A stretch of 64,000 nt of DNA from Lentisphaerae bacterium GWF2_50_93 (lineage in GTDB: Bacteria > Verrucomicrobiota > Lentisphaeria > Victivallales > GWF2-50-93). Below the pieces are notes generated by a model. The model saw only the letters and a list, made by a program, of their open reading frames with translations, was not told the DNA's origin and did not search any database. The DNA is taken from assembly GCA_001804815.1 (NCBI GenBank), contig MHBI01000011.1, forward strand, positions 1,670-65,669, read 5' to 3'. Below, in pieces: positions 9,020 to 60,557 of the stretch; the first letter of the stretch is position 1; every line of letters begins with the position of its first letter. The position numbers and the translations under genes were made by a program.

Positions 9020-9036
9020 TTTAATTAAAGGACTTT

Positions 9037-9095
9037 TTAACCACTAATTTACACTAACAGGACACTAACGAATATTTGCTGTGAATCTGTTTTTT
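9037..9095. repeat. Half copy (left arm) of the CACTAA/TTAGTG palindromic element
   Basis: TTAACCACTAATTTACACTAACAGGACACTAACGAATATTTGCTGTGAATC lies directly upstream of the wbuB-like start. No right arm is present. Confidence 0.6.
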
Positions 9096-9192
9096 GCATA
9101 TTTCTTAACCAGATTCCCTTGTCCGAGACGGACAACGCTACATTCTGTACCGACGACTGTCCCACCGTCTTACTGTCTGACCGTCCCACTGC

Positions 9193-10860: not shown

Positions 10861-10896
10861 ATGTGTAAAATCAGGAATTAGGAGACGGTCGGACGG

Positions 10897-11274
10897 TCAG
10901 ACAGATTTACAGAAAGACTCATAATTCTGGATCACGCTTCCGAGCTTACGTCCTAGCTCAGCATATCTCAATAATAGTTGGTAATGCTCTTCTGTAATCA
11001 TATATTCGCAGGATTTCGCTGTTTCAATCCAGTGCACGGTTTCCTGAAGTTCCCCGTCAGCGTCGGTACACTTGCTCAGAAAATGCGCAGGATATCTACG
11101 CTTTGACCAGGCTTCCGCGATATTGGCTCCAATTGAACGGGAACTCCGACGGACCTGATCGGTCAATGCATACTTTTCCTCTGGAGGCCAGAGTTTGCTA
11201 ACTTTGAAAACATGCTGTTGCAGTTCGAACGCCAATTTGTAAACATCTAAGTCTCGATAACTTTGCACGCGCAT
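10897..11274 (-). CDS. Four-helix-bundle protein (23S rRNA intervening-sequence protein / Avd-like family)
   Basis: 125 aa. YRDLDVYKLAFEL...ALTDQVRRSSRSIGANIAEAWSKRRYPAHF matches the family pattern. It is inserted between two functionally linked sugar-modification genes. Confidence 0.8.
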   Translation of the reverse strand: MRVQSYRDLDVYKLAFELQQHVFKVSKLWPPEEKYALTDQVRRSSRSIGANIAEAWSKRRYPAHFLSKCTDADGELQETVHWIETAKSCEYMITEEHYQLLLRYAELGRKLGSVIQNYESFCKSV

Positions 11275-11302: not shown

Positions 11303-11370
11303 CACTGCCCACTGCCCACTGCCTACCGCCTTACCGTCAGACCGTCAGACTGTCAGACCGTCAGACTGCC
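11303..11370. repeat. Degenerate word tract (CCCACTG x3, then CCGTCAGA x4)
   Basis: The sequence is CACTGCCCACTGCCCACTGCCTACCGCCTTACCGTCAGACCGTCAGACTGTCAGACCGTCAGACTGCC. It overlaps the last 6 codons of the oxidoreductase. Confidence 0.85.
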
Positions 11371-13500: not shown

Positions 13501-13527
13501 ATTGTCCCTTGAAAAAAACTAAAGATT

Positions 13528-13888
13528 TAACCACGAAACACACGAATGACACGAAAAGCAAGATTATTTAACCACTAATCTTCACTTATCTGACACTAAT
13601 AAATCATTTGCTGCGAGTTTGCTTCTCCGGAGGAGAATCAAAATCACAGCAAGTCTTGTATGTTAATTCCTGTTAGTGACAGATTAGTGTCCGTTAGTGG
13701 TGAAGTCTTTGTTCAGGTTTTAAGAAGGGCTCCCGAATTTCCGCATTCCCTCTTTCACAGACAACGGATCACCGACCTCTGATTACCGTGTCCATCCTGT
13801 CTGTCGTCTGCCCTCTGACCCCCCGATTACCGACCCTCCTGCCTGACTGTCCTCTGTCCTCTGTCCTCTACTGCCTACCGTCCTCAAC
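13528..13888. repeat. Composite intergenic mosaic: CACGAA words, palindromic element (13568-13706), TTCCGCATTCCCTCTTTC module, C/T-rich word tracts
   Basis: ACCACGAAACACACGAATGACACGAAAAGC comes first. The palindrome runs TTTAACCACTAATC...GTTAGTGGTGAAGTC. It is followed by CCGAATTTCCGCATTCCCTCTTTCACAGACAACGGATCACCG and then GATTACCG / CTGTCCT words. Confidence 0.85.
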
Positions 13889-33843: not shown

Positions 33844-33970
33844 AAAATAAAATGGAAATGGATGGGGGAGGTGTTAATAAGGGCTCAGCAAAACGGACAG
33901 TCGGACGGTTGGATTACGGTATGACACTCTCACCGTTAACTATCATTAAAATGATTATCTCGCGCAGCGG

Positions 33971-34232
33971 GGCCGGGATATAACCACGAAATACACGAAT
34001 CACACGAAAATAAGATTTTTATAACCACTAACATACACTAACAATATATTTGCGTTGAATGCTATTTTTTGAAACAAGAAAACATCATTCGACGCATGGT
34101 CTGTTTATTAATCCTGAGTCCCGAAAACTCTCGCACTTTAGAACTCCAGAACTTTCGAACTTCCGTTCGGTGTTTCTGTTAGTGCCGATCCTCCGTCGCC
34201 AAGGCTATGGGGGACGCGTTAGTGGTGAAATC
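33971..34232. repeat. CACGAA-word block + palindromic element (variant B apex) with internal GAACTTTCGAAC words
   Basis: GGCCGGGATATAACCACGAAATACACGAATCACACGAAAATAAGATTTTT is followed by ATAACCACTAACATACACTAAC...TGCGTTGAATG...CATTCGACGCA...GTTAGTG...GTTAGTGGTGAAATC. Confidence 0.8.
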
Positions 34233-34361
34233 TCTTCTTTATTCTGCGGTTGGGAAAAAATACGCACGCTGTGAACTCCAACGTAATTCGCTGATCAAAA
34301 ACTACCGACCTCTGATTACCGTCCCACCGTCCCACCGTCCCACCGGCTTCTTCTCCATGAC

Positions 34362-34625
34362 TCACTTGATTCGCCAGAATCCAGTTTTATGGCCGCCAAT
34401 TCATTCAAGGATTCCATCTTTCTTCAGTTTCAGAATATGCTGCTTCACTCCATTAATGCCGATACCAAGCTGCTGCGCTAGTTCTTTTCGCGTAACGCGA
34501 CTGTTCAGCCCGATTATTTCCAATAGACGTTCACGAGTCTTAGGGGTAGTCTTAGGGGTAGTCTTAGTCTTCTGTTCTTGATAATTCAAGCTGGCGAGAT
34601 ACCCATCGCCACTCTCCTCATTCAA
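34362..34625 (-). pseudogene. Remnant of the C-terminal wHTH part of an AlbA_2/ATPase-type regulator, with premature TGA
   Basis: KTTPKTTPKTRERLLEIIGLNSRVTRKELAQQLGIGINGVKQHILKLKKDGILE is followed by TGA (34401-34403). The frame then continues as IGGHKTGFWRIK-stop, the usual family ending (..RIGG.K.G.W.I). The N-terminal domains are absent. Confidence 0.55.
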
Positions 34626-34642
34626 ACGAAAAAATAAGATCT

Positions 34643-34770
34643 TTTAACCACTAATATTCACTAACAAAGAGACACTAACAAGACTAGGGACACTGACCAA
34701 TATTTGCTGCGAGTTTGTTTTGAAGCAAAATCAAAATCACAGTAAGGTGTTCATGTTAATTCTGAATCAT
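34643..34770. repeat. Palindromic element, copy lacking the right arm
   Basis: TTTAACCACTAATATTCACTAACAAAGAGACACTAACA...ATATTTGCTGCGAG...TCACAGTAAGGTGTTCATGTTAATTC. It ends where the PIN gene 3' end begins. Confidence 0.7.
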
Positions 34771-34786
34771 TGCTTTTGGCTGAGGT

Positions 34787-35516: not shown

Positions 35517-35678
35517 TTTATATTCCTCCAGTTAACATGTTTTCTAATTTGTTGAATTTTCCGTTTTCTCGCAGTCTATCGTAGAAAGTTACGATGCTCA
35601 TCTTTTGTATATTTTAACATTAGCGTATGCTAACGCTAAAACAACAGTATGTCAAGATGCGTATGATGGGAAATCCGG

Positions 35679-35852
35679 GGCCGGGATATAAACACGAAAT
35701 ACACGAAAATAAGATTTTTATAACCACTAACAAGAGCACTGACGAATATTTGCTGCGAGTTTTATTCTCAGATGAGAATAAAATTCACAGCAAGGTGTTC
35801 ATGTTAATTCCTGTTAGTGTTTCCGTTAGTGTCCATTAGTGGTGAAGTCTTC
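35679..35852. repeat. CACGAA-word block + palindromic element (variant A)
   Basis: GGCCGGGATATAAACACGAAATACACGAAAATAAGATTTTTA is followed by TAACCACTAAC...ATATTTGCTGCGAG..ATTCTC-AGAT-GAGAAT..CACAGCAAGG...GTTAGTGTTTCCGTTAGTGTCCATTAGTGGTGAAGTC. The right arm encodes the last 9 codons of wzz. Confidence 0.85.
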
Positions 35853-36955: not shown

Positions 36956-37116
36956 AATCCATTACACGCAAATGCTTCTTTACCACTAATCTACACTAAA
37001 AAGAGACACTAACGAATATTTGCTGCGAGTTTGATTCTCCGAGGAGAATAAAAATCACAGCAAGGTGTTCCTGTTAATTCTTGTTAGTGTTCCCGTTAGT
37101 GTCGATTAGTGGTGAA
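36956..37116. repeat. AATCCATTACAYGCAAAYGCTT module + palindromic element (variant A, most complete copy)
   Basis: TACCACTAATCTACACTAAAAAGAGACACTAACGAATATTTGCTGCGAGTTTGATTCTC-CGAG-GAGAATAAAAATCACAGCAAGGTGTTCCTGTTAATTCTTGTTAGTGTTCCCGTTAGTGTCGATTAGTGGTGAA. Confidence 0.9.
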
Positions 37117-37278
37117 AGCTCTTCTTTATTCTGCGGTCGTCTGCCGTCTGCTTACTGGCAACTGGTGGTCACCAACCTCTGTTACCGCCCTTCTAATTAC
37201 TAATCTCGGATTACAATTTTCCCTCGTGCAGCGGCGCAAGAACACAGAGATTATACTCACCACGATGAAACGAAGGGA

Positions 37279-37614
37279 TTATAATTTCAGGCTTTCAAGC
37301 CATTCCGTAAGTAGGGGGATATGGTTTTGCACAGCATCCCACACAATATTATCATCAACGCTATCATATCCATGTATGATTCGGTTGCGCATGCCGATGA
37401 TGCTTCCAATTGAGGGGATTTGACTTCGGAACGATGTGTCTATGCGATCTATCCGACTAAACGCTTCGCCAAGAATTTCAAATTGTCGTTCTACAGCTGA
37501 GCGCAAAAGCAAGCTGGCAGAGTATTCACTCAACGACTTCTCAGCAGTGAACAATGTGATTGCCTTGCATGCCGTCAGGGCATCAAGCAGATACTTTGCC
37601 AGTTCGATCTTCAT
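37279..37614 (-). CDS. hepT: HepT-like (DUF86) RNase toxin
   Basis: 111 aa with the R-x4-H-x-Y motif in GMRNRIIHGYDSVD. It is paired with an upstream nucleotidyltransferase. Confidence 0.8.
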   Translation of the reverse strand: MKIELAKYLLDALTACKAITLFTAEKSLSEYSASLLLRSAVERQFEILGEAFSRIDRIDTSFRSQIPSIGSIIGMRNRIIHGYDSVDDNIVWDAVQNHIPLLTEWLESLKL

Positions 37615-37924
37615 AAATTAAAGCTCTAGACTCATCTACTTTCTTTTGAAAATAAGAATTGCGGATTGATTTTGGGGTTAGCAGATCCACTTCTCTTCCC
37701 AGCAGTCTTTCAAGCTGTGTGGCTAGAGCAAGATAACGATCCAAAAGGCCCAAGCTTGAAGCCGAATTGTCAAATTCGACTATAAAATCTATGTCGCTAT
37801 GAGAGGAGTCAAATCTGCCATCGGAGGCAGAGCCAAAAACCTCCAAACGGTGAATTTGAAGATTTTTACAGATGGTCGCAATTTTAGGTTTGTTGGCAAC
37901 AAGCAAATCTATCATATACAACAT
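37583..37924 (-). CDS. mntA: MntA-like nucleotidyltransferase antitoxin
   Basis: LEVFGSASDGRFDSSHSDIDFIVEF (G-S-x10-D-x-D minimal NTase motif). The start is uncertain (37924, 37915 or 37966). It overlaps hepT by 32 nt. Confidence 0.75.
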   Translation of the reverse strand: MLYMIDLLVANKPKIATICKNLQIHRLEVFGSASDGRFDSSHSDIDFIVEFDNSASSLGLLDRYLALATQLERLLGREVDLLTPKSIRNSYFQKKVDESRALIYEDRTGKVSA

Positions 37925-38060
37925 ACCCGAATTTGTTGAATCATACACATTGGGATACTCTATCATGTATCAACCGTTTCTGCAAGAGGTGCCTGCTAGT
38001 GGCGAAGTATTTTTTCCTTTCTTCGGATTACGGCTTGCCAAACCACTGTCCATCCGATAC

Positions 38061-38091
38061 AGGATCTTCGCCGAGACGGCGAACTCTACAT
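38061..38091 (-). promoter_or_regulatory. Conserved hairpin module (sense: ATGTAGAGTTCGCCGTCTCGGCGAAGATCC), minus-strand copy
   Basis: It is the reverse complement of the modules at 49638-49670 and 55674-55702, between the wza-like stop and the mntA start. Stem TTCGCCG/CGGCGAA, loop TCTC. Confidence 0.6.
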
Positions 38092-38121
38092 TTTTACCGA
38101 CCGACGTCTGTCCTCCGCTGC

Positions 38122-40566
38122 CTACTGTATATCAATCGTGCTGTCCATCGGGACTTCGGGATTGAACCAGAGAAGTCTCTTGCCGTTCAGGATGTTTCCG
38201 GCGTACGTTTTAATCAGGATTTCCCTAGGAGTAAAGCCGTGTGTGTATCCGCCGGCCATATTTACGTAATACATATAATCTTCGCCTTCCTTATACACAT
38301 ACCGGCCTGGCTTGACAACAGAGCCTGAAATGAAAACCCAGGGCTGTATTTCCATAACCTCAATTTCATCGCCGGGCTTCACAACTATATTCTGCGCGCT
38401 GTCATGATTCTCTATTGCTTCATTGATATACACATCTGAAAGCATCCCGTCCCTTTTTAGAACCGCCTTGCCGATCATTACATTATTTTTAAAACCTCCC
38501 GCCCTCTCGACAAGCGATGATAATTTCTCATTATCCATATAGTTATATTTGCCTGGATAGTTGACCTTTCCTGACAATTCGACATCAGCCTCGTTTAAAT
38601 TAAAGTACGGATTCTTTGGGATGATTACCAGATCCTTCTCCTTCAGCAGGAAGAGCCTGTTCTCTTTGGAATTATAGTTCAAAAGTATAGCTTCCTTTTT
38701 CTCAATATCGGCTTCTCTTTTTAATCGCCCGATATCCACTCTTTCGGGATTTGCGGATTCAGTAAATCCTCCAGAGGCTTTTATGAGGTCGGCAATATTC
38801 ATGTTTTCTGTAAACTCATATTTCCCAGGCTTTTTAACTTCACCTCTGATTTCAATATGTTTTTTAGGTATGATCTCGTCTACCGAGTAAATCCTTACGC
38901 TGTCTCCGCTTGACAGCTTTATGCTTGTCTTGTTGCCCAGGACCTCGTAAATATTAAAAGGAATGATCTCAAATTCCCCCAGGCTTTTCTTCCTGAAAAG
39001 GTCAGCTCTCTCCATGTATATCTTCTTGTCCCTGTCCGGATCGTCAAAACCTCCGGCCATGAAAAGTAGATCCTGGAGGGTCATATCCTTGTTGAGCATA
39101 TATTTTCCGGGATTGCTGACAATGCCTGATATGCTGACGAATTTATCCTGCCCCTTCATTTCAAACTGGGAATAGATGATTATCTTGTCCATAGGGTTAA
39201 GAACAAATGGCTTGTCATTAGTATCAGCAAAGTTCAACCTGACGATTTCCTTCGTCAGATCCGCATTAGTACGGAGGATGATTATATTGTCCAGATAAGC
39301 ATCTTTATAGAGTCCGCCGGCCTCTGCAACAAGGTCCTTGAGGGTCGAGCCTTTTTTGTATTCATAGGTCCCAGGCTTTTTTACCCCGCTTCCACTGACA
39401 GTCAGGATGTCTCTGATTTTTTTAATTGGCATCACTGTGAAGCATATAGAATCCCTCGGATATAATTCTACATCTTTGCCGTCAACTAAGTCAATGTCAA
39501 GGAATTGCTCGCCTTTTACAGGATCATATCTTTCTATTTTTACTTTATCCTTGATTGCCTCAACGGAATAGCCTCCGGCGATTTCAAGAAGCTTGTTCAG
39601 GTTTTCATCTTTTTTAAGCTCGTATATGCCGGGTTTGGCGACGGCCCCTTGAAGCGCAACAGTTTTTCCTCTGATCGGTACGTATATGATATCGCCGTCA
39701 TTGAGATACTTGTCCTCTGACTTTAAGTTTCCTTTCAGAAGAAAGCTGTATAGGTCGAAAGTGTTGACTTTTCCGTCTTTCATCTTTCTGATTTCAATGT
39801 TCCTCAAAGACCCTATGGGATTTACACCGCCCCCTTGTTTCAGCGCGTTCATTACTGAGGCCGATGCAGCGTCAAGGTTAATCTCGCCAGGCTTAGCAAC
39901 TTCGCCTGTTACAAACAACTTAACTCCGATGTTCTTCCCGAGCGTTATATCGACTATGGAACTGCCGGAACCGGGATTTTCTGGATTGATGAACGCGGCA
40001 TATGTCTGGCTGAGGGCTTTAAGGATCTTTGCTTTGGCGGTGATGAGTTCCATCCCATGGACGTAGACGCGCCCGACTTTCAGTATGTCAATAAATCCAT
40101 CCTGTTGTATAGGAAGCTTATAATGGAGATTGACGTCACCCCAGATGTCAATTATGATTTCATCACCGGATTTCAAGATATAGTCGCCGAGGATTGCATT
40201 TGACGCACCCTGTGCAGGTCCTCCGGTTTTCAGGAACTCATAGCCAAATTCCTTTAAGGCGCCTTCAGCAGTTATCTTGTCGGTATCAGGAGAATTTGGA
40301 CCGCCTGCAACTTTCGCAGTAGCGCTGCCTGCTGGAACTGCCGCCCCAGTTGTAGAAGCGGAGGCAGTTCCTGGAGCAGTCGCTGTGCCGACCGAAGAAG
40401 AAGCCCCGGGGTTGCTTGATACAGCGGGCGGTGCAACGACAGCTGGAGCGGTCGCAGTTGCCCCGGCAGTTGAAGTTTCCGCTGCAATTACTGCAGCCGC
40501 GATAGCTGCGGTTGTTAAAACCGCAAACACAAGAAATACGATTGTCTTCTTACTGAATATTTTCAT
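38122..40566 (-). CDS. wza: Outer-membrane polysaccharide export protein (Wza/OPX family) with multiple SLBB domains
   Basis: 814 aa. A signal peptide is followed by an Ala/Thr/Ser/Pro-rich linker and a Poly_export-like segment (SGDEIIIDIWGD...IQQDGFIDILKVGRVYVHGMEL). Repeated SLBB-like modules follow (V.I.G.V.KPG.Y). Confidence 0.8.
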   Translation of the reverse strand: MKIFSKKTIVFLVFAVLTTAAIAAAVIAAETSTAGATATAPAVVAPPAVSSNPGASSSVGTATAPGTASASTTGAAVPAGSATAKVAGGPNSPDTDKITAEGALKEFGYEFLKTGGPAQGASNAILGDYILKSGDEIIIDIWGDVNLHYKLPIQQDGFIDILKVGRVYVHGMELITAKAKILKALSQTYAAFINPENPGSGSSIVDITLGKNIGVKLFVTGEVAKPGEINLDAASASVMNALKQGGGVNPIGSLRNIEIRKMKDGKVNTFDLYSFLLKGNLKSEDKYLNDGDIIYVPIRGKTVALQGAVAKPGIYELKKDENLNKLLEIAGGYSVEAIKDKVKIERYDPVKGEQFLDIDLVDGKDVELYPRDSICFTVMPIKKIRDILTVSGSGVKKPGTYEYKKGSTLKDLVAEAGGLYKDAYLDNIIILRTNADLTKEIVRLNFADTNDKPFVLNPMDKIIIYSQFEMKGQDKFVSISGIVSNPGKYMLNKDMTLQDLLFMAGGFDDPDRDKKIYMERADLFRKKSLGEFEIIPFNIYEVLGNKTSIKLSSGDSVRIYSVDEIIPKKHIEIRGEVKKPGKYEFTENMNIADLIKASGGFTESANPERVDIGRLKREADIEKKEAILLNYNSKENRLFLLKEKDLVIIPKNPYFNLNEADVELSGKVNYPGKYNYMDNEKLSSLVERAGGFKNNVMIGKAVLKRDGMLSDVYINEAIENHDSAQNIVVKPGDEIEVMEIQPWVFISGSVVKPGRYVYKEGEDYMYYVNMAGGYTHGFTPREILIKTYAGNILNGKRLLWFNPEVPMDSTIDIQ

Positions 40567-40618
40567 GGGTTATCTCCTTGATGCAAAGTTAAGTCTGAAA
40601 AAATAAAAAAAACACTTG

Positions 40619-40988
40619 TTAACCACTAATCTACACTAAAAAGAGACACTAACAATACATATGCGTTGAATGCTGTTTTTCAAAACAAAAATATCATCCG
40701 ACGCATGGTCTGTTTATAATTAAACTTTCATCCTGGTTAGTGTAAAATCAGTGTGGATTAGTGGTGAAATCTTCAGTTTTCTTTACGGAACGCCGGCACC
40801 CCTGCCGGCATGTTTCTTTTCTTCTTATATAACTATGCCACCAGGTCTCAAGATCCCGGCCACGAAGTGCGTCGGGATTGGTGGCGTTCCATGATTCGCT
40901 GATTACCGACCCCGGATTACCGATTACGCCATCCGTCGTCCGTCCTCCGTCCCCTGCCGACTGCCCACTGCCCACTGCCCACCGATTC
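40619..40988. repeat. Direct repeat copy 1 (~365 bp): palindromic element variant B + hairpin/T-tract + GATTACCG and CCCACTG words
   Basis: Near-identical to 42423-42785 at an offset of 1804 bp. This copy has one extra CCCACTG unit. Confidence 0.9.
40792..40826 (+). terminator. Orphan terminator-like hairpin on the + strand inside the direct repeat (second copy at 42596-42630)
   Basis: GCCGGCA-CCCC-TGCCGGC is followed by ATGTTTCTTTTCTTCTT. There is no + strand CDS upstream. On the - strand no U-run follows the stem. Confidence 0.3.
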
Positions 40989-40996
40989 CCTGCCTC

Positions 40997-42304
40997 TCAC
41001 TCCAGAAGCCATTTCCAAGCCGGGACAGCTCGTATTTTAACGCCTTCACTGCTGAAATATTGTTCTTCATTGCGGGTTACAATGAAGTTTTCCTTGACAC
41101 CGAAATATTTTGCAGTTGAAACCAGAGGGTCAACCTCCCTCTTAAGGGTTTCCTTGTCTGAAATGTCAATACAGACCTGTATGGTGGACGAAGGCCTTCC
41201 GCTGTTCCCGGTAACTATGAAATCCACTTCCTGCCTATGGGACTTCGTCAGATAGTAGTTCAATCTGGAGTGCCTTCTTTTGAGATGGACGAAGACCATG
41301 TTTTCAAAAGCGCGTGAAAGACTTCCATCCCATACAGGACTGTTATGGTTGGCAAGAGCCCAGTCAATACAGTAGTTCTTCTTGCTGTTCCTGTCGATCT
41401 CCTTTTGTGAGGAGCTGTAAATCGGGATCGGAAAGAAAAGCCAGGAATCTTCGGAGTGCTGGAGTAGTTTTAATACGGTATCCCTTCCTATGTGAAAACC
41501 GCATTGCCTGAGATATCCGTATGTGCTCTTATGGGATACTCCCTTCCCCATGCATGAGAGCAGGTACCTGTATAGATGGATGCATTCCCTGGGCTGGGTG
41601 ACACCAAATCTCTGTATCACATCCCTGAGTATCATGGTGTCAAAATATTCCCTCAGCAATTTCGCCTTTGAGCTCTCCTGGGTTTCCGTAAGGGCGGGAA
41701 ACCCTCCCCAGAGAAGATAGCTTTCTAGAAGGGAGTCCAGTCTTGCCTGTCCCACCGTCGAACCGACATCGGCATGAACGCGGTTGAAATCCAGAAATTC
41801 GCGGAAAGAAAGAGGATATATCTCGGTGCCTATTGATTTTCCGCGGAGTTCCTTTGCTGCGTCGTCCCTGAGAAGTTTGGACGAGGAGCCGGTGACGAGC
41901 ACCTTCCAGTTCCTGTTTCTTGAGAGTTCGATAACTGCGTTTTCCCAGCCATCTATCCTATATATCTCATCGAATATGAAAAGGGACGGCGTTTTCATGT
42001 CGAAGCTGGGATTGAGCTTGAGATATGATTTCTGTATGTCTAGAAGATCCTTCGCATTCATGGATGAAAGGACAGGATTGTCAAAGTCCAGGAAGCATAT
42101 GTTCCGTATTGAGGCGACCTGCCGTTGCCTCAGAAATTCATCGGCGACCTGCAGGGCTCTGAAGCTTTTTCCGGCACGCCTCGACCCTATGAGCGAGGAT
42201 ATCATGTTGGGAACGATATCGACCGGATCCAGCCTTGGCACGAATTCGGGAATGCCGTTTTTCCAGAAGTCCTCGAGTTTTCGGCCTATCTCGTTTGAAA
42301 TCAC
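40997..42304 (-). CDS. AAA+ ATPase with DUF4143 (AAA_14 family)
   Basis: 435 aa. Walker A is LIGSRRAGKSF and Walker B is LFIFDEIYRIDGWE. The C-terminal region has the typical WGGFP pattern. Confidence 0.8.
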   Translation of the reverse strand: MISNEIGRKLEDFWKNGIPEFVPRLDPVDIVPNMISSLIGSRRAGKSFRALQVADEFLRQRQVASIRNICFLDFDNPVLSSMNAKDLLDIQKSYLKLNPSFDMKTPSLFIFDEIYRIDGWENAVIELSRNRNWKVLVTGSSSKLLRDDAAKELRGKSIGTEIYPLSFREFLDFNRVHADVGSTVGQARLDSLLESYLLWGGFPALTETQESSKAKLLREYFDTMILRDVIQRFGVTQPRECIHLYRYLLSCMGKGVSHKSTYGYLRQCGFHIGRDTVLKLLQHSEDSWLFFPIPIYSSSQKEIDRNSKKNYCIDWALANHNSPVWDGSLSRAFENMVFVHLKRRHSRLNYYLTKSHRQEVDFIVTGNSGRPSSTIQVCIDISDKETLKREVDPLVSTAKYFGVKENFIVTRNEEQYFSSEGVKIRAVPAWKWLLE

Positions 42305-42422
42305 TTTTACTCCACAATTATGACTTGTTACAAGGCATAATATGATATAATTGACACTTTTAGCAAGGCATAAATTAAAAAAGTAACTATACTAAACACG
42401 TGGAAAACATGAAAAAGATCTT

Positions 42423-42785
42423 TTAACCACTAACGTCCACTAAAAAGAGACACTAACAGTACATATGCGTTGAATGCTATTTTTCAAAACAAAAATATCA
42501 TCCGACGCATGGTCTGTTTATAATTAAACTTTCATCCTGGTTAGTGTAAAATTAGTGTGGATTAGTGGTGAAGTCTTCAGTTTTCTTTACGGAACGCCGG
42601 CACCCCTGCCGGCATGTTTCTTTTCTTCTTATATAACTATGCCACCAGGTCTCAAGATCCCGGCCACGAAGTGCGTCGGGATTGGTGGCGTTCCATGATT
42701 CGCTGATTACCGACCCCGGATTACCGATTACGCCATCCGTCGTCCGTCCTCCGTCCCCTGCCGGCTGCCCACTGCCCACTGATTC
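42423..42785. repeat. Direct repeat copy 2 (~365 bp)
   Basis: See copy 1. Only scattered substitutions were seen (e.g. CTAATCTAC vs CTAACGTCC, AATCAGTG vs AATTAGTG). Confidence 0.9.
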
Positions 42786-42892
42786 ATGACATGCAGGCAA
42801 GCTTCGCCCCGTCAATTATGCGGATTGCTAACTCATAAAATAGCTCTAAAATGGGGATTTTACCACCTGAATTATAAAACTCCAGAATGCAA

Positions 42893-43255
42893 ATCCATTA
42901 CATGCAAACGCTTATTCACCACTAACGTACACTAAAAAGAGACACTAACGGTACGTATTAATTAAACTATATCGTTTACTTAATCCGTACTAATAGAGGT
43001 AATTTCAAAACTCAAGGAATGGTCATGGCAAGCATGACCCTCCACGCCCGAAACGGGCGTAAGAATGGAGGGACGCGGTTTTGCCTTCGGCAAGCATCGC
43101 TTCGCTAAGCTAAGCCGCGTCCGAAGTTTTGAAATTACCTCAATAATCAAATTCACAGCAAGGCCTGGTTTATAAATTCCGAGTCATAAAAACTCCAGCA
43201 CTCCATAACTTTAGAACTTTAGAACTCCCCTTCAGTGTCCATTAGTGGTGAAGTC
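42893..43255. repeat. Palindromic element copy with an expanded/interrupted apex
   Basis: The left part is AATCCATTACATGCAAACGCTTATTCACCACTAACGTACACTAAAAAGAGACACTAACG. The right part is ...ATTCACAGCAAGG...CAGTGTCCATTAGTGGTGAAGTC. The left apex half is replaced by new sequence that includes the 146-bp insert. Confidence 0.75.
42996..43141. repeat. 146-bp insert bounded by perfect 17-bp inverted repeats, highly structured (MITE-like element or ncRNA)
   Basis: GAGGTAATTTCAAAACT ... AGTTTTGAAATTACCTC. Internal helices are GGTCATG/CATGACC, CCCTCCA/TGGAGGG enclosing ACGCCCG-AAA-CGGGCGT, and GACGCGG/CCGCGTC enclosing TTGCC-TTC-GGCAA. Confidence 0.6.
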
Positions 43256-43320
43256 TTCTCGTTCCGAACTTTCGAACTTCCGCATTCCCTCTTTCTCAGA
43301 CCACGGATCACCGTCCTCCT

Positions 43321-43398
43321 GCCCACTGCCCACTGCCCACTGCCCACCGCCCACTGCCCACTGCTCACTGCCCACCGCCCACTGCCCACTGCCCACTG
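43321..43398. repeat. Heptamer tandem repeat (GCCCACT) x11
   Basis: Eleven consecutive 7-mers, three of them variants (GCCCACC x2, GCTCACT). The complementary strand reads (CAGTGGG)n, a G-quadruplex-type motif. Confidence 0.95.
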
Positions 43399-43520
43399 TC
43401 TGCCAGCCACTTTCCGATCTTTCAGGAGTATTTCCCTTGATTTTACCTAGTGCCTGATTATCTTCAAGGTGCGAGACAATTGCAAAAACGGATCTTTCGT
43501 TGAAATATATGATCTATGCT

Positions 43521-43738
43521 GTGCCGCCACCCTGCGGGGGCTGGAAAATTTATTTAATGAATTATCATCCCCACGCTTACGCATGAGGCTACAATATGAC
43601 ACCCTCTGTGAGGGTTGAATATAAAAAAGGCATTTTTAAATAGCCTCCGCAGGAGGTGAAATCCTGTAGCCCAAAGGCGTAAGCCTTGGGAGATATGGAT
43701 TATATAAAAGACAACAAGCCCCCGCAGGGCGGCGACAC
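43521..43738. repeat. 218-bp element bounded by 22-bp inverted repeats, internally structured
   Basis: GTGCCGCCACCCTGCGGGGGCT ... AGCCCCCGCAGGGCGGCGACAC (20/22 complementary). Internal helices are GGCTACA/TGTAGCC enclosing ACCCTC-TGT-GAGGGT and CCTCC-GCA-GGAGG, then CCCAAAGGC-GTAA-GCCTTGGG. Confidence 0.6.
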
Positions 43739-43788
43739 TTAAAGAAAAATACAGATATAAAGTGATAGGAGTTGACAAATAAGTCTTT

Positions 43789-45735
43789 ATGGCAATTAAG
43801 GGAAAAATACTATACTGCGGAACGACGTTGCTTAATTTATTCAAAGATTTTGCCTCTAATGCAAAGGGGAATATCACAGCGGCTGTTATTGCAGCTATAG
43901 CAGCGTTCATACCGCTGATAGTGCATCTGAGGATTGTCCCCCTCCCACCGGACACAGCCATGTATTGGCCCACCGGCACAAATTACGATTTTTTCTCCTA
44001 CTACAAGATGGTATGGTTTTTGGTTTTAACATTGTTTGCACTTATTATTTTTATCATTGGCCTGAAATATAAAAAAATAGCTCTCACGAAGACCTGGATA
44101 TACGTGCCTGTCGGGATATATGCTTTGACAGCCATCCTCTCAACTGTATTCGCAAAACACAAGGACGCTGCCCTTTTCGGCTTCCCGGACAGATACGAAG
44201 GGCTGTTTGTCATCCTCGGATATATCCTTGTCTTCATCATAACCTTGAATGTCGCCCAGAACAGAGGAGCCTTGAAGCTGATTCTGACTGGGCTTTTCTT
44301 CTCGGCATTTTTTGCCTCCCTGATAGGACTCTTCCAATTCATCGGCACGATTCAGTTGTTTGGGAAGACATACGTGCTTGATTTATTCAAGACCAGCCTG
44401 GGGCAGTGGTTGATTGTCCCAGGGGCCTACAGGGATGCGCTGACCCTTGATTTCCGCTTCGCCGTCCATCAGGTCTACACAACCCTGTATAACACCAATT
44501 TTGTTGGAAGCTTCATGGAGATGACGCTTCTACTCTCGATTGTTCTCTTCATCTATGATCCCAACAAGAAAAGAAAGCTGATTTACTGCATATTGGCTAT
44601 GCTTATCTTCACCAACTGGCTTGGCTGTCTTTCAAGGGCAGGGTACCTCGGAGCTGCCGCCTCGATCCTGATCTTATTCATCGTCGCTGTCTTCCGGTAT
44701 AATCCGCTGAAGAAGGAATCAAAAGGCAGTTCCGTTCGCTCCTTATGCATAAATTCAATCCTCATCATCTGCTTGTTCACTGTATTGTTCCTCTTTTTGA
44801 ACTTCTTCTCGAAAAGCACTATTACCATGCAGTTCTCAAGACTTTTGGATACGGCTGACAGGATAATAACCGCTTCCGACTCAGACGCGCAGCCAACAAA
44901 GACTCAGGATATCTTTCAGACCAAGCCAAAGGACGAGATAAAGGATATCAGGATCACCCCTGACACGATCTATTACTCAACAACAGATGCAGACATGAAG
45001 ATCAGGTTAATCGGAAATGATCTGCAATTTTCCACAGGGGATGGGAATCAGCTCGTTCCAACCTTTGATAAAAAGAAGAATGGATACGTATTTAATTATC
45101 CGAAGTATTCAAAATTCATGTTTAACCTTGCAAAGAACAATGTTCTTTTCCTGTATTATAGAAAACTCATCATTCAGGTCGCTATCACAAACCAAGGATT
45201 CAAGAATTATGATGAGCGGTTTGGAATTACGGATGTAAAGGAGATCCCTTCCTGGGGGTTCGAAGGCATGGAAAGGAAGGCGACCCGCTTTTATGGATGG
45301 TCCAGGTCCATCCCCATGCTGAAAGATACTGTTGTCCTAGGCAACGGACCGGATACCTTTGCCCTCCATTTTCCCCAGCTTGACTATGTCGCCAAAATGA
45401 AATATTACGCCGATCCATATCTGATAATCGACAAGCCCCACAACATGTACCTGCAGATTGCATTAAACACAGGAGTTGTCTCCCTTATATGCGTCCTAAT
45501 TATTTTCGTCTCGTATATAGCCACGAGCATCAAGATAATATTGACAAATATGACGCGCTCCATCTACACGACCATCTCGCTGGGAGTCTTTCTCGGCACT
45601 ACCGCCTATATGATAACCGCCTTCTTCAACGATTCCCTTATATCCGTAGCGCCTGTCTTCTGGATCATGCTGGGACTCGGATATGCGGTGAATTTTGTGG
45701 TGCTTGGTGAAAGACAGCAGGGGACAGTGAACTGA
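43789..45735 (+). CDS. O-antigen ligase family (Wzy_C domain) membrane protein with a large periplasmic insert
   Basis: 648 aa with at least 10 TM segments. It carries the CLSRAGYLGAAASILILF motif region and a soluble segment of about 170 aa between TM blocks. Confidence 0.65.
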   Translation: MAIKGKILYCGTTLLNLFKDFASNAKGNITAAVIAAIAAFIPLIVHLRIVPLPPDTAMYWPTGTNYDFFSYYKMVWFLVLTLFALIIFIIGLKYKKIALTKTWIYVPVGIYALTAILSTVFAKHKDAALFGFPDRYEGLFVILGYILVFIITLNVAQNRGALKLILTGLFFSAFFASLIGLFQFIGTIQLFGKTYVLDLFKTSLGQWLIVPGAYRDALTLDFRFAVHQVYTTLYNTNFVGSFMEMTLLLSIVLFIYDPNKKRKLIYCILAMLIFTNWLGCLSRAGYLGAAASILILFIVAVFRYNPLKKESKGSSVRSLCINSILIICLFTVLFLFLNFFSKSTITMQFSRLLDTADRIITASDSDAQPTKTQDIFQTKPKDEIKDIRITPDTIYYSTTDADMKIRLIGNDLQFSTGDGNQLVPTFDKKKNGYVFNYPKYSKFMFNLAKNNVLFLYYRKLIIQVAITNQGFKNYDERFGITDVKEIPSWGFEGMERKATRFYGWSRSIPMLKDTVVLGNGPDTFALHFPQLDYVAKMKYYADPYLIIDKPHNMYLQIALNTGVVSLICVLIIFVSYIATSIKIILTNMTRSIYTTISLGVFLGTTAYMITAFFNDSLISVAPVFWIMLGLGYAVNFVVLGERQQGTVN

Positions 45736-46074
45736 TGACAGAAGTTCGAAAGTTCGGGAATGCGTAGGTGCGTCAGTCTTTATTTCTAAAGGTAGGGACG
45801 CCTTAAAGTTTATCCCGATCCTGTAAGGCATCGGGAAGGCGTCCACGGCGCTCTCGGCGAGAGCGCCGTACCTGGATTCATCCCATGCAATAGAAACTGA
45901 TGTGTTACGTGCCCCCGTTAATCTAATTCCAGAATATCTTGCGAATAACCAAAATGACTGTATTGTATATGCCGGAGTCTTGGGGATACGCATTGTGTTT
46001 TCGTGCAATCCCTGATCTGGGCTCGTCTGGAAAAATCATGGGTCAGGACAACTAATCTATGGGGGAACATCATT

Positions 46075-49560: not shown

Positions 49561-49606
49561 GGGAGGCAGGAAGTGCGGAAGTGCGGAAGTGCGGAAGTTG
49601 CGAATT
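49561..49606 (+). repeat. GGAAGTGC octamer word tract
   Basis: GGGAGGCAGGAAGTGCGGAAGTGCGGAAGTGCGGAAGTTGCGAATTACG begins immediately after the gspC-like stop. Confidence 0.85.
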
Positions 49607-49637: not shown

Positions 49638-49670
49638 GGATGTAGAGTTCGCCGTCTCGGCGAAGATCTT
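49638..49670 (+). promoter_or_regulatory. Conserved hairpin module GGATGTAGAGTTCGCCGTCTCGGCGAAGATCTT
   Basis: One of three copies in the window, all in sense orientation relative to the flanking genes. This one lies 72 nt upstream of gspD. Confidence 0.6.
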
Positions 49671-53660: not shown

Positions 53661-53755
53661 AGGTAGGAAGTAGAAATTAGAAATTAGAAAGTAGAAAACA
53701 GTAGAAAGTTTAAAACGGGAATGTTTTCTAAATCATACTTTCTAAATTCTAAATA
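53661..53755. repeat. AT-rich palindromic word tract (TAGAAA / TTTCTA words) in the gspE-gspF spacer
   Basis: AGGTAGGAAGTAGAAATTAGAAATTAGAAAGTAGAAAACAGTAGAAAG ... CTAAATCATACTTTCTAAATTCTAAAT. The two arms are complementary. Confidence 0.8.
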
Positions 53756-53792: not shown

Positions 53793-54995
53793 ATGCCCCT
53801 GTTCAAATACAAAGCGGCCAGTCCTGACGGCAAGGTTTCGGAACTCCTCATAGAAGGCGATTCCGAACCCGACTCCCTCGTCAGACTGAGGCAGAGGGGG
53901 TTCATGCCCCTCGAATCATACGGGCAGGTGCAGAGCTTCCCGCAGGAGAAGAACTGGCGTTTCTGGCAGGGCGGCGGATTTGACGCCTGCGATTTCACGA
54001 ACCGTCTCGCGCCTCTCCTCAAAGCCCACATACCGCTCGAAAGGGCCCTTGGAATAATCGCGCAGGGGGCGGACAACCAGAACTACACCAGGACCGTGAA
54101 CGACATAAGGAAAGGGCTTCATGAAGGCAAGAAGTTCTCCGCCCTTATCCGCGACCATGGCGCAAGGTTCCCCAGGATTTATGCGAACCTTGTCGAAGCA
54201 GGCGAGGAAACCGGCTCCCTGACTGAAATCATTGCGGAACTGCAGCGCTTCCTCAACGAACGAAAGGACATGAGGAACTTCCTCCTGACAAGTTCCATCT
54301 ATCCGGCGTTTGTCATTGCCGTCACCGGCACGGTCGTGATCCTCCTTTTCACGGTTTTCATCCCCAGGTTCTCGAAGATTTTCGTCGATATGGGCAAGCC
54401 GCTGCCGTTCATCACGAAGGTCATGGTGGAGATCAGCAATGCCATGATTGGCCTCTGGTGGCTGTGGATTATCCTTGCGGGGGTGCTGGCATTCCTTGTT
54501 TCCCGAATCAGGAAGGGCGGCAGGATTGCCGACTGGTGGAATGAAACCGTCCTCAAGATCCCCATCTTCGGAGAGCTCCTGATACTCACCGAGATCAGCA
54601 GGTTCCTGAGGACTATTGCCGTGCTCATCCAGAACCATGTCCATCTGCTGAGCACCATGCAGATCGCCGTGAACGTCCTTGTAAACCCGAGGATAGCCAG
54701 GACTTTTGCGGACGTCCCGCCGGAACTGAAGGGCGGCGCGAAACTGTCTACCGCGCTCAGCAAGAGCGGCTACGTTCCCAAGCATGCCCTGCAGATGCTC
54801 TCCATCGGCGAGGAGTCGGGCAACATGGGCGGCATGCTCAACCAGGTCGCAGATCATTACGAGGAGATGCTGAGGACGAAGATAAAAAGGCTCCTAGCGC
54901 TTTTCGAACCTGTGGTCATCCTCTTCCTCGCAGCCGTGATCATGGCGGTCGTGCTCTCAATATTCCTGGCGATACTGGAAATGCAGAACATATAG
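53793..54995 (+). CDS. gspF: Type II secretion inner-membrane platform protein GspF
   Basis: 400 aa. MPLFKYKAASPDGKV at the N-terminus, two T2SSF repeats and three TM segments. Confidence 0.9.
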   Translation: MPLFKYKAASPDGKVSELLIEGDSEPDSLVRLRQRGFMPLESYGQVQSFPQEKNWRFWQGGGFDACDFTNRLAPLLKAHIPLERALGIIAQGADNQNYTRTVNDIRKGLHEGKKFSALIRDHGARFPRIYANLVEAGEETGSLTEIIAELQRFLNERKDMRNFLLTSSIYPAFVIAVTGTVVILLFTVFIPRFSKIFVDMGKPLPFITKVMVEISNAMIGLWWLWIILAGVLAFLVSRIRKGGRIADWWNETVLKIPIFGELLILTEISRFLRTIAVLIQNHVHLLSTMQIAVNVLVNPRIARTFADVPPELKGGAKLSTALSKSGYVPKHALQMLSIGEESGNMGGMLNQVADHYEEMLRTKIKRLLALFEPVVILFLAAVIMAVVLSIFLAILEMQNI

Positions 54996-55050
54996 GGGGC
55001 AGGGGGTGGGGATTGGGAGATTGGGAGAGTGTGAGATTGGATAGGGTTGG
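54995..55050 (+). repeat. G-run word tract with G-quadruplex motif in the gspF-gspG spacer
   Basis: GGGGGCAGGGGGTGGGGATTGGGAGATTGGGAGAGTGTGAGATTGGATAGGGTTGG on the sense strand, starting at the gspF stop codon. Confidence 0.85.
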
Positions 55051-55536: not shown

Positions 55537-55626
55537 CGAACAATTCAACTTCGAACATTGAACATCCAACGTCGTGGAACAATCGAATATCGAACAGCCG
55601 AACAATCGAATTACGAATATCGAAGT
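55537..55626 (+). repeat. TCGAACA-type word tract
   Basis: GAACAATTCAACTTCGAACATTGAACATCCAACGTCGTGGAACAATCGAATATCGAACAGCCGAACAATCGAATTACGAATATCGAAG. Confidence 0.8.
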
Positions 55627-55673: not shown

Positions 55674-55702
55674 GATGTAGAGTTCGCCGTCCCGGCGAAG
55701 AG
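55674..55702 (+). promoter_or_regulatory. Conserved hairpin module GATGTAGAGTTCGCCGTCCCGGCGAAGAG
   Basis: Third copy, followed by the GGAAGTGCGGAA and TTGGAGTTCAAACTTTAG modules. These also occur at 49570-49630, but in a different order. Confidence 0.6.
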
Positions 55703-55873
55703 AATTGCGGAGTTCTGGGATGGAACTAAGGAAGTGCGGAAATCTTGTTGGAGTTCAAACTTTAGTTTGTCTTAGTATTCAATTCAAGGCGGGTTTTTCC
55801 ATGAACTCAAATCCGAAACAATTAAGGCGGAAGATTCAAATATCTGAAATTTCAAAACTTAGAATTTCGAATT

Positions 55874-56377: not shown

Positions 56378-56450
56378 AATTAATTACTTTTAAATATGAT
56401 GCAAGTTCCAGGATGCAGGATCCAGGATTTCTAAAACAAGCATCGAGTGT

Positions 56451-56520
56451 CCGGCATCCGGCATCAAGCATCCGGCATCCGGCATCAAGCATCCGGCATC
56501 CGGCATCAAGCATCCGGCAT
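56451..56520 (+). repeat. Perfect 21-bp tandem repeat (CCGGCATCCGGCATCAAGCAT) x3.3
   Basis: It abuts the ATG of the gspI-like gene and is in frame with it (it would read HPASSIR x3). The unit is itself three 7-mers (CCGGCAT CCGGCAT CAAGCAT). Confidence 0.95.
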
Positions 56521-59127: not shown

Positions 59128-59240
59128 TATAACCACCACGTTTGTCCAGCGCTATGAATACAAAATAATGACACCGGAGAACTTACCTTAATCCGTCGCC
59201 ACTTCAAATATTATTATAAATAAATCCACTGCCGTCCCAT

Positions 59241-59432
59241 GGATTATTGGATTGCTGGATTATTGGATTGTTGCAAATCAAAGAGTTATGCCATAATCAC
59301 AATATAGGAAAAATCCGAAATGCCTATTCTGAATTTTTTCTTAAAATCCAGCATCTTTGGTTTTTCTGGAACTCAAACCCAATAATCCAGGAATCCATAA
59401 ATCCATTAATCCGTCATCCTGTGGGATGACGG
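59241..59432. repeat. Inverted GGATTATT-word arms plus GTCATCC hairpin module
   Basis: GGATTATTGGATTGCTGGATTATTGGATTG (59241-59270) faces CCCAATAATCCAGGAATCCATAAATCCATTAATCC (59378-59412). CCGTCATCC-TGTG-GGATGACGG follows. Confidence 0.75.
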
Positions 59433-60523: not shown

Positions 60524-60557
60524 GGAAGCCAGGAGCCAGAAGCCAGGAGTCAGGAGG
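60524..60557 (+). repeat. Purine-rich GCCAGGA word tract in the 5' leader of the DUF1559 gene
   Basis: GGAAGCCAGGAGCCAGAAGCCAGGAGTCAGGAGG. Its last GGAGG could serve as the RBS. Confidence 0.8.

Follow-up and report, generated by a model that had tools for sequence, protein, structure and literature searches.

Short-period tandem arrays past gene ends in a 64-kb stretch of a Lentisphaerae metagenome-assembled genome

Tandem arrays in a polysaccharide and secretion locus

The DNA analysed here (hereafter, the window) is a 64-kb stretch of the metagenome-assembled genome Lentisphaerae bacterium GWF2_50_93, and its intergenic spacers contain degenerate tandem arrays of 7- and 8-nt words, referred to below as tracts. 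Pfam scans place a minus-strand surface-polysaccharide cluster at ~4.6-42.3 kb, the products of which are a GT4 transferase, a UDP-GlcNAc 2-epimerase, a GT1 protein, a heparinase II/III, an ADH-GFO protein, a methyltransferase, the O-acylation proteins AlgX and MBOAT, Wzx, Wzz, and an SLBB-type Wza. The same scans identify a plus-strand block from 43.8 kb that encodes Wzy, the type II secretion set GspD-GspK, and DUF1559/N-methyl proteins. The nearest species-level genome is a Victivallales metagenome-assembled genome (JBAQUG01), the Wza of which is 86% identical.

The tracts were first noticed in a sequence-only reading of the window, and the short-period repetition that it described is real. 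Tandem Repeats Finder (TRF) detects 7/8-nt arrays at or within 14 of the 16 regions listed in that reading, and periodicity at lag 7 or 8 is significant in 13 of the 16 (autocorrelation against 2000 shuffles, P<=0.0075), the exceptions being 37131-37200 (P=0.16), 38094-38135 (P=0.12), and 54995-55050 taken as a whole (P=0.17, though with a TRF match; Table 1). Short-period repeats occupy 840 of the 9,164 non-coding bases (9.2%) against 260 of the 54,836 coding bases (0.47%), a 20-fold excess, and dinucleotide-shuffled spacers yield only 20+-22 such bases, which puts the observed value ~40-fold above the shuffled spacers. At every tract but one, the (CAGTGGG)x11 array at 43319-43398, the window is matched at 100% identity by four independent assemblies, so the tracts are not assembly noise. 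An apparent tract difference in the assembly contig L030 is a scaffold gap (NN).

The majority of the nominally coding repeat bases belong to the last 90 nt of the GT4 open reading frame (ORF) at 4634-6655, where translation continues through the array as far as the stop codon and adds 42 non-conserved residues. The ortholog P0002, which is 95% identical, ends 42 residues earlier with the residues DFQP, and the tail was rejected as real coding sequence because it is not conserved. Where a native stop is overrun, an array is translated as a junk C-terminal tail, and array-encoded C-termini were found in three genes, namely those for GT4 and ADH-GFO in the window and that for Wzy in contig L002 of the related genome. 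The stop codon of the ADH-GFO gene sits within a (GTCTGACG)x4 array, and the C-terminus of its product is unlike that of the ortholog. Protein coding by the tracts themselves was also rejected, as the ORFs that run over the (CAGTGGG)x11 array (43219-43410 and others) have no gene context.

The distribution of the tracts is narrower than the sequence-only reading proposed. It placed them at almost every gene boundary; among 43 co-directional junctions, 23 of which have a gap of at least 40 nt, a 7/8-periodic tract lies in the first 60 nt past the stop in only ~10-11, and no array occurs at the junctions of the core of the polysaccharide cluster (14.6-33.8 kb). At the 10-11 junctions concerned, the array starts 0-12 nt past the stop codon. 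At least 10 different 7- and 8-nt words are used in the 64 kb, with copy numbers of 2.4-11.4 and no peak at 4, and 8-nt units are as frequent as 7-nt units.

Not all of the listed tracts lie in gene-end spacers. The (CAGTGGG)x11 array, the most prominent example in that list, lies in a divergent region rather than after a gene (see below). The region 56451-56520, listed as a spacer tract, is a perfect 21-nt repeat (56450-56520) that is probably translated in frame within the GspI prepilin leader. The gspH stop is overlapped by an ATG at 56374, and the alignment of the GspI leader of the related contig L007 extends into the repeat. Translation from this ATG would yield IRHPASS repeats and an expanded prepilin-type leader peptide; the leader of the ortholog has 14 residues. 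A further in-frame repeat, of 12 nt (ACCCCTAAGACT x2.7, 34536-34571), is found inside a small minus-strand HTH_24 ORF (34401-34640) that is called in contig L030, in an area first taken for a 943-nt spacer. Both repeats were removed from the strand statistics because they are probably coding.

Table 1. Tandem arrays and associated modules in the window.
Feature	Position	Strand	Remarks
Heptamer array translated as GT4 tail (units GGAGTCA, GCAGACA, GTGGTCA)	4635-4735	-	TRF
8/16-nt periodic G-rich tract	9146-9201	-	directly past heparinase II/III stop; TRF 9156-9191; P=0.0075
(GTCTGACG)x4 then (GGCAGTG)x3	11303-11370	-	TRF
Degenerate heptamer array, 118 nt	13771-13888	-	directly past methyltransferase stop; lag-7 autocorrelation 0.48, P=0.0005; (AGGACAG)x3 and GGTAATC words; TRF match 13847-13869
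(GGTGGGAC)x3.5	34302-34345	-	~55 nt past stop of small HTH_24 ORF; TRF 56; lag-8 0.64
Degenerate heptamer array	40902-40996	-	starts 1 nt past AAA_14 stop; units drift from GTGGGCA via GAGGACG to GTAATCG; lag-7 autocorrelation 0.69; TRF sub-arrays 40932-40952 and 40954-40982
Paralogous copy of 40902-40996 tract, one heptamer fewer	42706-42781	-	repeat families D1, D5
(CAGTGGG)x11	43319-43398	-	TRF (CTGCCCA)x11.4, score 139; lag-7 autocorrelation 0.92
8-nt periodic purine-rich tract, GAAGTTCG type	45736-45776	+	directly past Wzy stop; lag-8 0.48, first 60 nt
(GGAAGTGC)x3.8	49561-49606	+	directly past stop of gene upstream of gspD; TRF 60; lag-8 0.79
(TAGAAAT)n, loop, anti-tract (TTCTAAA)n	53663-53754	+	after gspE stop; tract 53663-53697, anti-tract 53740-53754; TRF
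G-run tract (GGGGGCAGGGGGTGGGGATTGGGAGATTGGGAG and following)	54995-55050	+	directly past gspF stop; TRF 55007-55040; G-quadruplex motif 54995-55017
A-rich 7/8-nt periodic tract, GAACAATC / ATCGAAT	55537-55626	+	past gspG stop; TRF; P=0.0015; skew -0.11
Perfect 21-nt repeat (TCCGGCATCCGGCATCAAGCA)x3.4	56450-56520	+	TRF period 21, 100% matches, score 142
Inverted 8-nt arrays (TGGATTAT)n and (AATCCATA)n	59240-59412		downstream of AraC-type gene; 59240-59273 and 59384-59412; TRF
(AGCCAGG)x4.3	60524-60557	+	leader of DUF1559/prepilin-type gene; TRF; N_methyl motif position
REP-like module: AATGTAGAG then hairpin TTCGCCG-TCT-CGGCGAA	38064-38093	-	directly 3' of tract after Wza stop; family D20
REP-like module, further copies	49639-49668, 55674-55703	+	
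REP-like module, variant	9116-9145	-	
Long hairpin element: left arm CACCACTAA..CACTAAC, central hairpin, right arm GTTAGTG..TTAGTGGT	36964-37137	-	fold z=-4.0
Long hairpin element, other copies	13553-13709, 34006-34250, 40604-40789, 42408-42593, 42900-43257		families D3, D7, D9-D14
Long hairpin element, partial copies	9022-9092, 34629-34771, 35725-35851		
Conserved non-coding block, sigma-70-like match (TTGAAG, 16 nt, TAAAAT)	43404-43469	-	hit 43467 to 43440; reads into (CAGTGGG)x11 array

Strand, shared words, and turnover of the arrays

After the two coding repeats and one duplicate had been set aside, 20 non-coding tracts remained for the strand statistics. G exceeds C on the local sense strand in 16 of these, and the sense GC skew reaches at least 0.3 in 12, compared with 14% of equal-length coding segments (P=3e-6). 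A skew of -0.3 or below is seen in only two tracts, both of which are anti-tract arms of hairpins. When the junctions of relatives are added, 17 of 19 first tracts past a stop have more G than C on the coding strand, although window and relative junctions are not independent. The proposal that the G-rich strand is the sense strand in both gene blocks therefore stands as a strong tendency with exceptions: C outnumbers G in the A-rich tract 55537-55626 and in 56451-56520, and 10881-10904 is G-rich on the plus strand and therefore C-rich on the sense strand.

Each spacer had been thought to use its own word, which is only half correct: CAGTGGG recurs at four loci, two tracts are copies in a 385-nt duplication, some tracts adjoin dispersed modules with 91% identity between loci, and the triplet CAG is present on the sense strand in 7 of the 10 heptamer units of the window against ~15% expected (P=1e-4), or in 10 of 15 units if relatives are included. 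This CAG anchor, common to most of the heptamer words, is a new feature. Within arrays, units drift in register, as in the series GTGGGCA, GTCGGCA, GAGGACG, GATGGCG, and GTAATCG. A change in unit homogeneity with distance from the stop codon was considered but is not robust, since the distal halves also contain sequence that is not part of the array. As for CsrA-type GGA sites or Shine-Dalgarno-like motifs, these were rejected as a common denominator on inspection by eye, several words (CAGTGGG, GTCTGACG, TAGAAAT) being devoid of them.

The sequence-only reading also interpreted the tracts as G-quadruplex (G4) motifs. The canonical pattern (G3+ N1-7)x4 is present at 43336-43359 and 43371-43394 (together, 43336-43394), at 40964-40990, and at 54995-55017, that is, at three tract loci, and at one further, coding site; it is not found at the other 12 or more tract regions. 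Runs of at least three G occur in CAGTGGG (four loci) and in the G-run tracts at 34319 and 54995, whereas most other words (AGGACAG, GGACGGA, GTCTGACG, GGAAGTGC, TAGAAAT) have GG or less, and half of the arrays consist of 8-nt units. When quadruplexes are allowed in ViennaRNA folding, the predicted minimum-energy structure changes for four of nine tracts, one of them through a two-tetrad quadruplex; in 54995-55050, the G4 is within the minimum-energy fold. Thus, richness in G or purines is general among the tracts but G4 potential is not, and as predicted from motif and fold, the latter does not unify them. Overall, what the sequence-only reading observed was confirmed in part, and its interpretation was likewise supported in part.

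Two arrays are accompanied by inverted counterparts with which they could form hairpins (53663-53697 with 53740-53754, and 59240-59273 with 59384-59412). The gspE tract and anti-tract pair in the predicted fold (z=-1.6), and the orthologous gspE-gspF spacer in L007 gives a like hairpin from a different word (GTTTTAA / CTTAAAAC, z=-5.0).

Comparisons between copies and genomes show how the arrays change. The two copies of a 385-nt direct duplication (40600-40988 / 42404-42792, 95% identical) have the same array but for a single GCCCAC(C/T) unit. The comparison with JBAQUG01, whose proteins are 85-95% identical, covered nine orthologous gene ends. In six of these, protein conservation extends as far as the stop, and at most of the nine the relative again has a short-period G/purine-rich tract with another word or length; the gspG spacer is instead partly conserved and A-rich, and one relative spacer, which follows the heparinase II/III gene in L005, is only 33 nt long. 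Paired words at orthologous junctions include GGAAGTGC vs GACAGAG/GCAGACG, GGGAGATT vs GGAT, and GACGGTCA-type vs GAAGTTCG. Downstream of the gene that precedes gspD (49561-49606), the corresponding position in L007 is occupied by another G-rich heptamer tract; past the gspF stop, L007 has (GGAT)x4.5, and L009 differs from it by a 4-nt indel; and the A-rich tract past gspG (55537-55626) is the one partly conserved in L007. In a more distant relative (L013), only a remnant of an array is left. A metagenome scan with Wza returned a single close relative, on a 1.5-kb contig.

The (CAGTGGG)x11 array differs between assemblies. It has 11 units in the window, at least 19 in contig L025 (ENA ERZ909592), and at least 18 in contig L026 (JGI 3300025154), the latter two counts being lower bounds, as both contigs dead-end inside the array. 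On the left side, three perfect units in the window compare with at least 11 in the ENA contig and at least 10 in the JGI contig. The interior variant units are identical among assemblies and the difference is confined to the homogeneous run, which is either a true length polymorphism or the result of collapse in one assembly.

The pattern is not limited to this genome, since many heptamer words occur in viral contigs: IMG/VR contigs L048-L054, chosen for (CAGTGGG)>=4, contain many other heptamer arrays, and CAG or CTG is present in 23 of 33 units of the viral and proviral contigs, a set that is biased by its selection. In high-GC viral contigs, the arrays are often inverted pairs that would form long hairpins, as in L049 (2840-2980, z=-4.7), which has arrays at 2840-3037, 7795-7998, and 12350-12602. 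L054 is a genuine phage with a gpA terminase, and the similarity of this terminase did not assign a host.

The arrays are non-coding, non-random in position and strand, variable in copy number, and subject to turnover at fixed junctions. We consider with moderate confidence that they are hypermutable 7-8-nt simple-sequence arrays of the 5-11-nt "long simple sequence repeat" (long SSR) class, mostly without word-specific function. Slippage as the driving process is suggested because words and lengths differ between orthologs, the duplication differs by one heptamer, and the (CAGTGGG)n array has 11 or at least 18-19 units; the sequence-only reading's description of locally expanding and contracting microsatellites is upheld by the same three observations. 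Slipped-strand mispairing would add and remove units, copy-number change itself being observed, and new unit variants would spread locally, so that the word and the length at a junction would turn over fast while the array persists. Selection would confine the arrays to sites at which a change in length is harmless, mainly at or within a few bases of the stop codon in co-directional gene pairs, and also in leaders. Arrays that give C-rich, G-poor untranslated RNA within operons would be removed by an orientation filter, plausibly because C-rich RNA loads Rho and causes polarity, and a transcription-linked mutational bias or R-loop bias could add to the orientation bias. The few G4-capable arrays would be so by chance.

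Several points weigh against an origin by slippage and permissive siting alone. The Rho filter is a conjecture, and the strand statistics are drawn from ~20 tracts in one 64-kb window, with window and relative junctions that are not independent. The sharing of CAG by 7 of 10 heptamer units and the retention of a G-rich array at the same junction across species are not predicted by pure neutral slippage, and could reflect a sequence-specific factor or common descent. Apart from the (CAGTGGG)x11 array, no length polymorphism was found among the four assemblies, which probably sampled the same aquifer population, and the one difference that was found could stem from assembly collapse rather than from true polymorphism.

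The CAG anchor and the retention at orthologous junctions lend themselves to a functional explanation, which we regard as possible but doubtful. In this case, the arrays would be cis-elements that act on the transcript or on non-template DNA, with a CAG-anchored G/purine-rich platform past each cistron, a few of them folding as G-quadruplexes; such a platform, structured or bound by a multimeric RNA-binding protein, would modulate 3'-end protection of the mRNA, pausing, anti-termination, or translational coupling. The consistency with which arrays sit at the stop codon and are kept between orthologs despite turnover, the strong strand bias, and the spacing of the CAG anchor at 7 nt are all in line with this idea, as are the tract/anti-tract hairpin built from different words between gspE and gspF in two genomes and the G4 in the predicted minimum-energy fold of four of nine tracts. 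Ring proteins that read triplets at fixed spacing exist: HutP reads UAG every 7 nt, and TRAP is likewise a ring protein of this kind. On the other hand, the words differ between spacers and the G4 rule applies at only three loci, arrays are missing at half of the gapped junctions and throughout the 14.6-33.8 kb core, relatives do without them at several junctions (the 33-nt spacer of L005 and the remnant of L013), and no candidate binding protein was found in the window. The related repeats of Xanthomonas are mostly transcribed and form G4 in vitro, but no regulatory role was found for them (Rehm et al., 2015, PLoS One; PMC4692102).

It is also tempting to speculate, as an idea that we hold to be improbable, that the arrays form a functional system, either as platforms for HutP/TRAP-like multimeric regulators or as "anti-Rho insulators." In the latter case, C-poor RNA would allow hundreds of nucleotides of untranslated mosaic spacer, together with cassettes, to be carried in long operons without polarity, and C-rich antisense RNA would shut down antisense transcription.

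Mosaic spacers and the divergent region

A second new feature is that the spacers are mosaics, in which the tracts are accompanied by REP-like hairpins (after repetitive extragenic palindromic sequences) and by a hairpin element of ~100-250 nt. On the sense strand, the recurring order is the stop codon, a G-rich array (with GGTAATC words), sometimes a REP-like module, the long hairpin element, TTCGTG repeats, and the next start; the succession from tract through modules and hairpin element to gene start recurs in at least six spacers. A 25-mer of the REP-like module (GTAGAG, then TTCGCCG-TCT-CGGCGAA) has three matches with at most one mismatch where none is expected (38065-38089 on the minus strand; 49642-49666 and 55677-55701 on the plus strand), and the module is also present in L002, where it forms an inverted doublet (3423-3490), and in L005, where its orientation is reversed. 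All four REP-like hairpins of the window lie 0-50 nt 3' of a tract.

The long hairpin element, 8-9 copies of which are present, has arms with three CACTAA or TTAGTG repeats each at ~10-11-nt spacing, and a core of ~95 nt is conserved in L002, L005, and L010. Its copy at 36964-37137 lies between a tract and the next gene start, and that at 42900-43257 has nested palindromic insertions. The element matches no Rfam family. A scan of viral contigs with the pattern of the hairpin arms gave 16 hits, which are taken as chance matches because the contigs show no further similarity to the window.

Two further motifs were observed in these spacers. TTCGTG repeats at ~9-nt spacing (TTTCGTGT.ATTCGTGT.TTTCGTGG; 13515-13556, 33968-34009, 35676-35707, and positions 1-30 of L010) stand just upstream of several gene starts, past the hairpin element, and could represent a module that is promoter-proximal or serves as a binding site. 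Hairpins that resemble terminators (GCCGGCACCCCTGCCGGC with a T-rich tail) are located on the plus strand at 40792-40809 and 42596-42613, inside the duplicated spacer; their orientation opposes transcription antisense to the minus-strand genes.

The spacers resemble insertion hot spots for accessory genes. In comparison with the related genome, insertions comprise an AAA_14/DUF4143 gene, MNT-HepT (37279-37966), and a gene for a 23S-IVS four-helix-bundle protein (10897-11274). The AAA_14/DUF4143 ATPase gene (40997-42304) is flanked by the 385-nt direct repeat, which ends in a heptamer array, and is absent from the syntenic Victivallales locus; in L010, the same gene is found beside the same hairpin element in a different genomic context. 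The inverted tracts that flank the 23S-IVS gene were examined as an insertion signature and rejected, because the downstream "tract" is largely ancestral spacer that is also present in L005.

This arrangement raises the alternative that the tracts belong, as parts or as tails, to mosaic elements that move or recombine, spread together with the REP-like and long hairpin elements, and that the spacers are landing pads for cassettes. Such a model would account for the proximity of all four REP-like hairpins to tracts, the recurring order of modules, the insertion of the three accessory genes into spacers of this kind with the 385-nt repeat around AAA_14, the joint occurrence of this gene and the hairpin element in L010, and the recurrence of tract-adjoining modules at 91-95% identity (D18, which is 91% identical between 13734-13779 and 43273-43318, and D1/D5). 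Even so, we think it unlikely: tracts free of modules exist (after gspF, after gspE, and at 60524), words differ among copies of otherwise similar spacers, and the presence of all four REP copies in tract-bearing spacers is not significant (~0.07) among the 23 gapped junctions. No transposase, RAYT, or integrase gene was found within the 64-kb window, and no link to mobile elements was seen for the heptamer repeats of Xanthomonas and Nostoc (Rehm et al., 2015; PMC4692102).

The neighbouring module, though not the tracts, resembles a known type of element. It consists of GTAG(AG) followed by a GC-rich 7-bp stem, and it is multi-copy and extragenic. REP sequences of enterobacteria and pseudomonads, and the bacterial interspersed mosaic elements (BIMEs) built from them, have a GTAG-type tetranucleotide beside an imperfect palindrome and are mobilised by RAYT transposases. 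As with REP/BIME, the module is placed just 3' of genes, in both orientations, within a mosaic of short recurring motifs; unlike REP/BIME, it has no RAYT gene to accompany it in the window. To our knowledge, classical BIMEs have not been reported to contain heptamer arrays.

The (CAGTGGG)x11 array has a setting of its own: it is upstream of the minus-strand genes for polysaccharide export, in the divergent region of 1.48 kb that extends from 42304 to 43789. Its start is ~30-40 nt downstream of the conserved block 43404-43469, which is 86% identical to L002 2901-2966 with different flanks and, to judge from its sigma-70-like match, is a putative promoter. The array itself is absent at the orthologous site of L002 in the related genome. 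In the same divergent region, upstream of wzy and outside the tracts, a sub-threshold match to the Rfam Acido-Lenti-1 RNA was observed at 43569-43616 on the plus strand under relaxed thresholds (24 bits against a gathering score of 37, E=0.05); no Rfam family reached its gathering score in the scan of the window, and no tRNA was found in it.

From its position, the array could belong to a putative operon leader, in which its length could tune expression. We consider it very unlikely that this single array is a contingency (phase-variation) switch, in which the leader or promoter-proximal copy number alters expression of the polysaccharide-export operon: the conserved promoter-like block, the wza-wzz-type genes of a surface-polysaccharide cluster downstream, and a unit number that differs among assemblies only in the homogeneous part would suit such a switch, as would the published statement that intergenic SSRs can control expression through effects on the 5' untranslated region (PMC12721329), whereas the promoter is a consensus match only (27 such matches in the scan, no more than the 22.7+-4.7 in shuffles), the array is separated from wza by ~1 kb of mosaic spacer and by the inserted AAA_14 gene, assembly may have produced the length difference artificially, and the related genome is without the array.

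Among the remaining features of the window, the plus-strand leader array at 60524-60557 would supply with its last unit an AGGAGG sequence 8 nt before a putative TTG start at 60566. A 213-nt tandem repeat (x2.3, 93% identical) is located at 1-492 within a large PPC/fn3 surface-protein gene that extends past the left end of the window.

Known heptamer repeats and the place of the present arrays

The host is new but the phenomenon is known, similar arrays having been described in Xanthomonas and cyanobacteria. The closest counterparts of the present arrays, if they are simple-sequence arrays as we prefer, are the G-rich heptamer SSRs GGGAATC of Xanthomonas and GGGGA(C/T)T of Nostoc (Rehm et al., 2015, PLoS One; PMC4692102). 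Those repeats are non-coding, lie between aligned ORFs 0-50 bp past the stop with the G-rich strand as the coding strand, vary in length and sequence between relatives, and form G4 in vitro; a function was not found (PMC4692102). The window presents the same non-coding excess, the same placement between aligned ORFs and past the stop with a G-rich coding strand, and variation in length and sequence at the same junction between relatives at nine gene ends, and units like GGGAATC and GGTAATC are found inside its arrays. In both systems, occasional inverted pairs can form stem-loops. The arrays of the 64-kb window differ from those repeats in having no single dominant word and no preference for four units, in conforming to the G4 rule at three loci only, in using 8-mers besides 7-mers, in belonging to a Lentisphaerota host, and in being embedded with other dispersed modules, the known repeats having shown no association with mobile elements.

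Cyanobacterial short tandemly repeated repetitive (STRR) heptamers, which belong with the long SSRs as the present arrays probably do, reportedly include words such as CCCCAGT and CAACAGT (Mazel et al., 1990). More generally, bacterial long SSRs with 5-11-nt units are described as showing an excess of heptamers, with polymerase slippage proposed as their cause (Mrazek et al., 2007, as summarised in PMC4679880). The arrays of the window share with STRR and long SSRs the intergenic tandem heptamers, the use of several words per genome, and the presence of CAG(T) in the units. In STRR1, CAGT is on the C-rich strand, whereas here it is on the G-rich strand, and the heptamer is the dominant unit in STRR and long SSRs, whereas 8-nt units are as frequent as 7-nt units here. 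A cyanobacterial origin of the window, or membership of its arrays in the STRR families, was rejected: HIP1 occurs twice against 1.2 times expected, and protein names point to Lentisphaerae/Victivallales. The combination of a T2SS with DUF1559 proteins fits the gene content of the Planctomycetes-Verrucomicrobia-Chlamydiae (PVC) group.

The TAACTGA repeats are intergenic heptamers of marine Beggiatoaceae, some cyanobacteria, and Bacteroidetes (MacGregor, 2015; PMC4679880). They consist of 2-6 copies of one fixed word, placed a few nucleotides before start codons, and it has been proposed that they act post-transcriptionally, with S1, Csp, and CsrA as candidate binders (PMC4679880). The likeness extends to intergenic heptamers that are abundant in a lineage, and the reverse complement of TAACTGA contains CAGT. 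Unlike the TAACTGA repeats, which precede starts, the present arrays follow stops, and identity with them was rejected, as the window has no match to TAACTGATAACTGA with up to 2 mismatches. In Geobacter metallireducens, families of four tandem heptamers or octamers are annotated as putative regulatory sites.

Arrays of this kind have practical consequences, in that they break assemblies (contig dead-ends, N gaps in scaffolds) and mislead annotation into false C-terminal extensions and start calls. They also provide natural contrasts: different words at one junction in two genomes, paralogs one unit apart, and an array of 11 or at least 19 units in a putative operon leader. Intergenic SSRs with 7-8-nt units are common in scattered bacterial lineages, to which an example from the PVC group (Lentisphaerota) is now added. 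The geography of the arrays relative to genes is the same as in Xanthomonas and Nostoc, and therefore supports a general rule, mutational or selective, rather than a quirk of one lineage.

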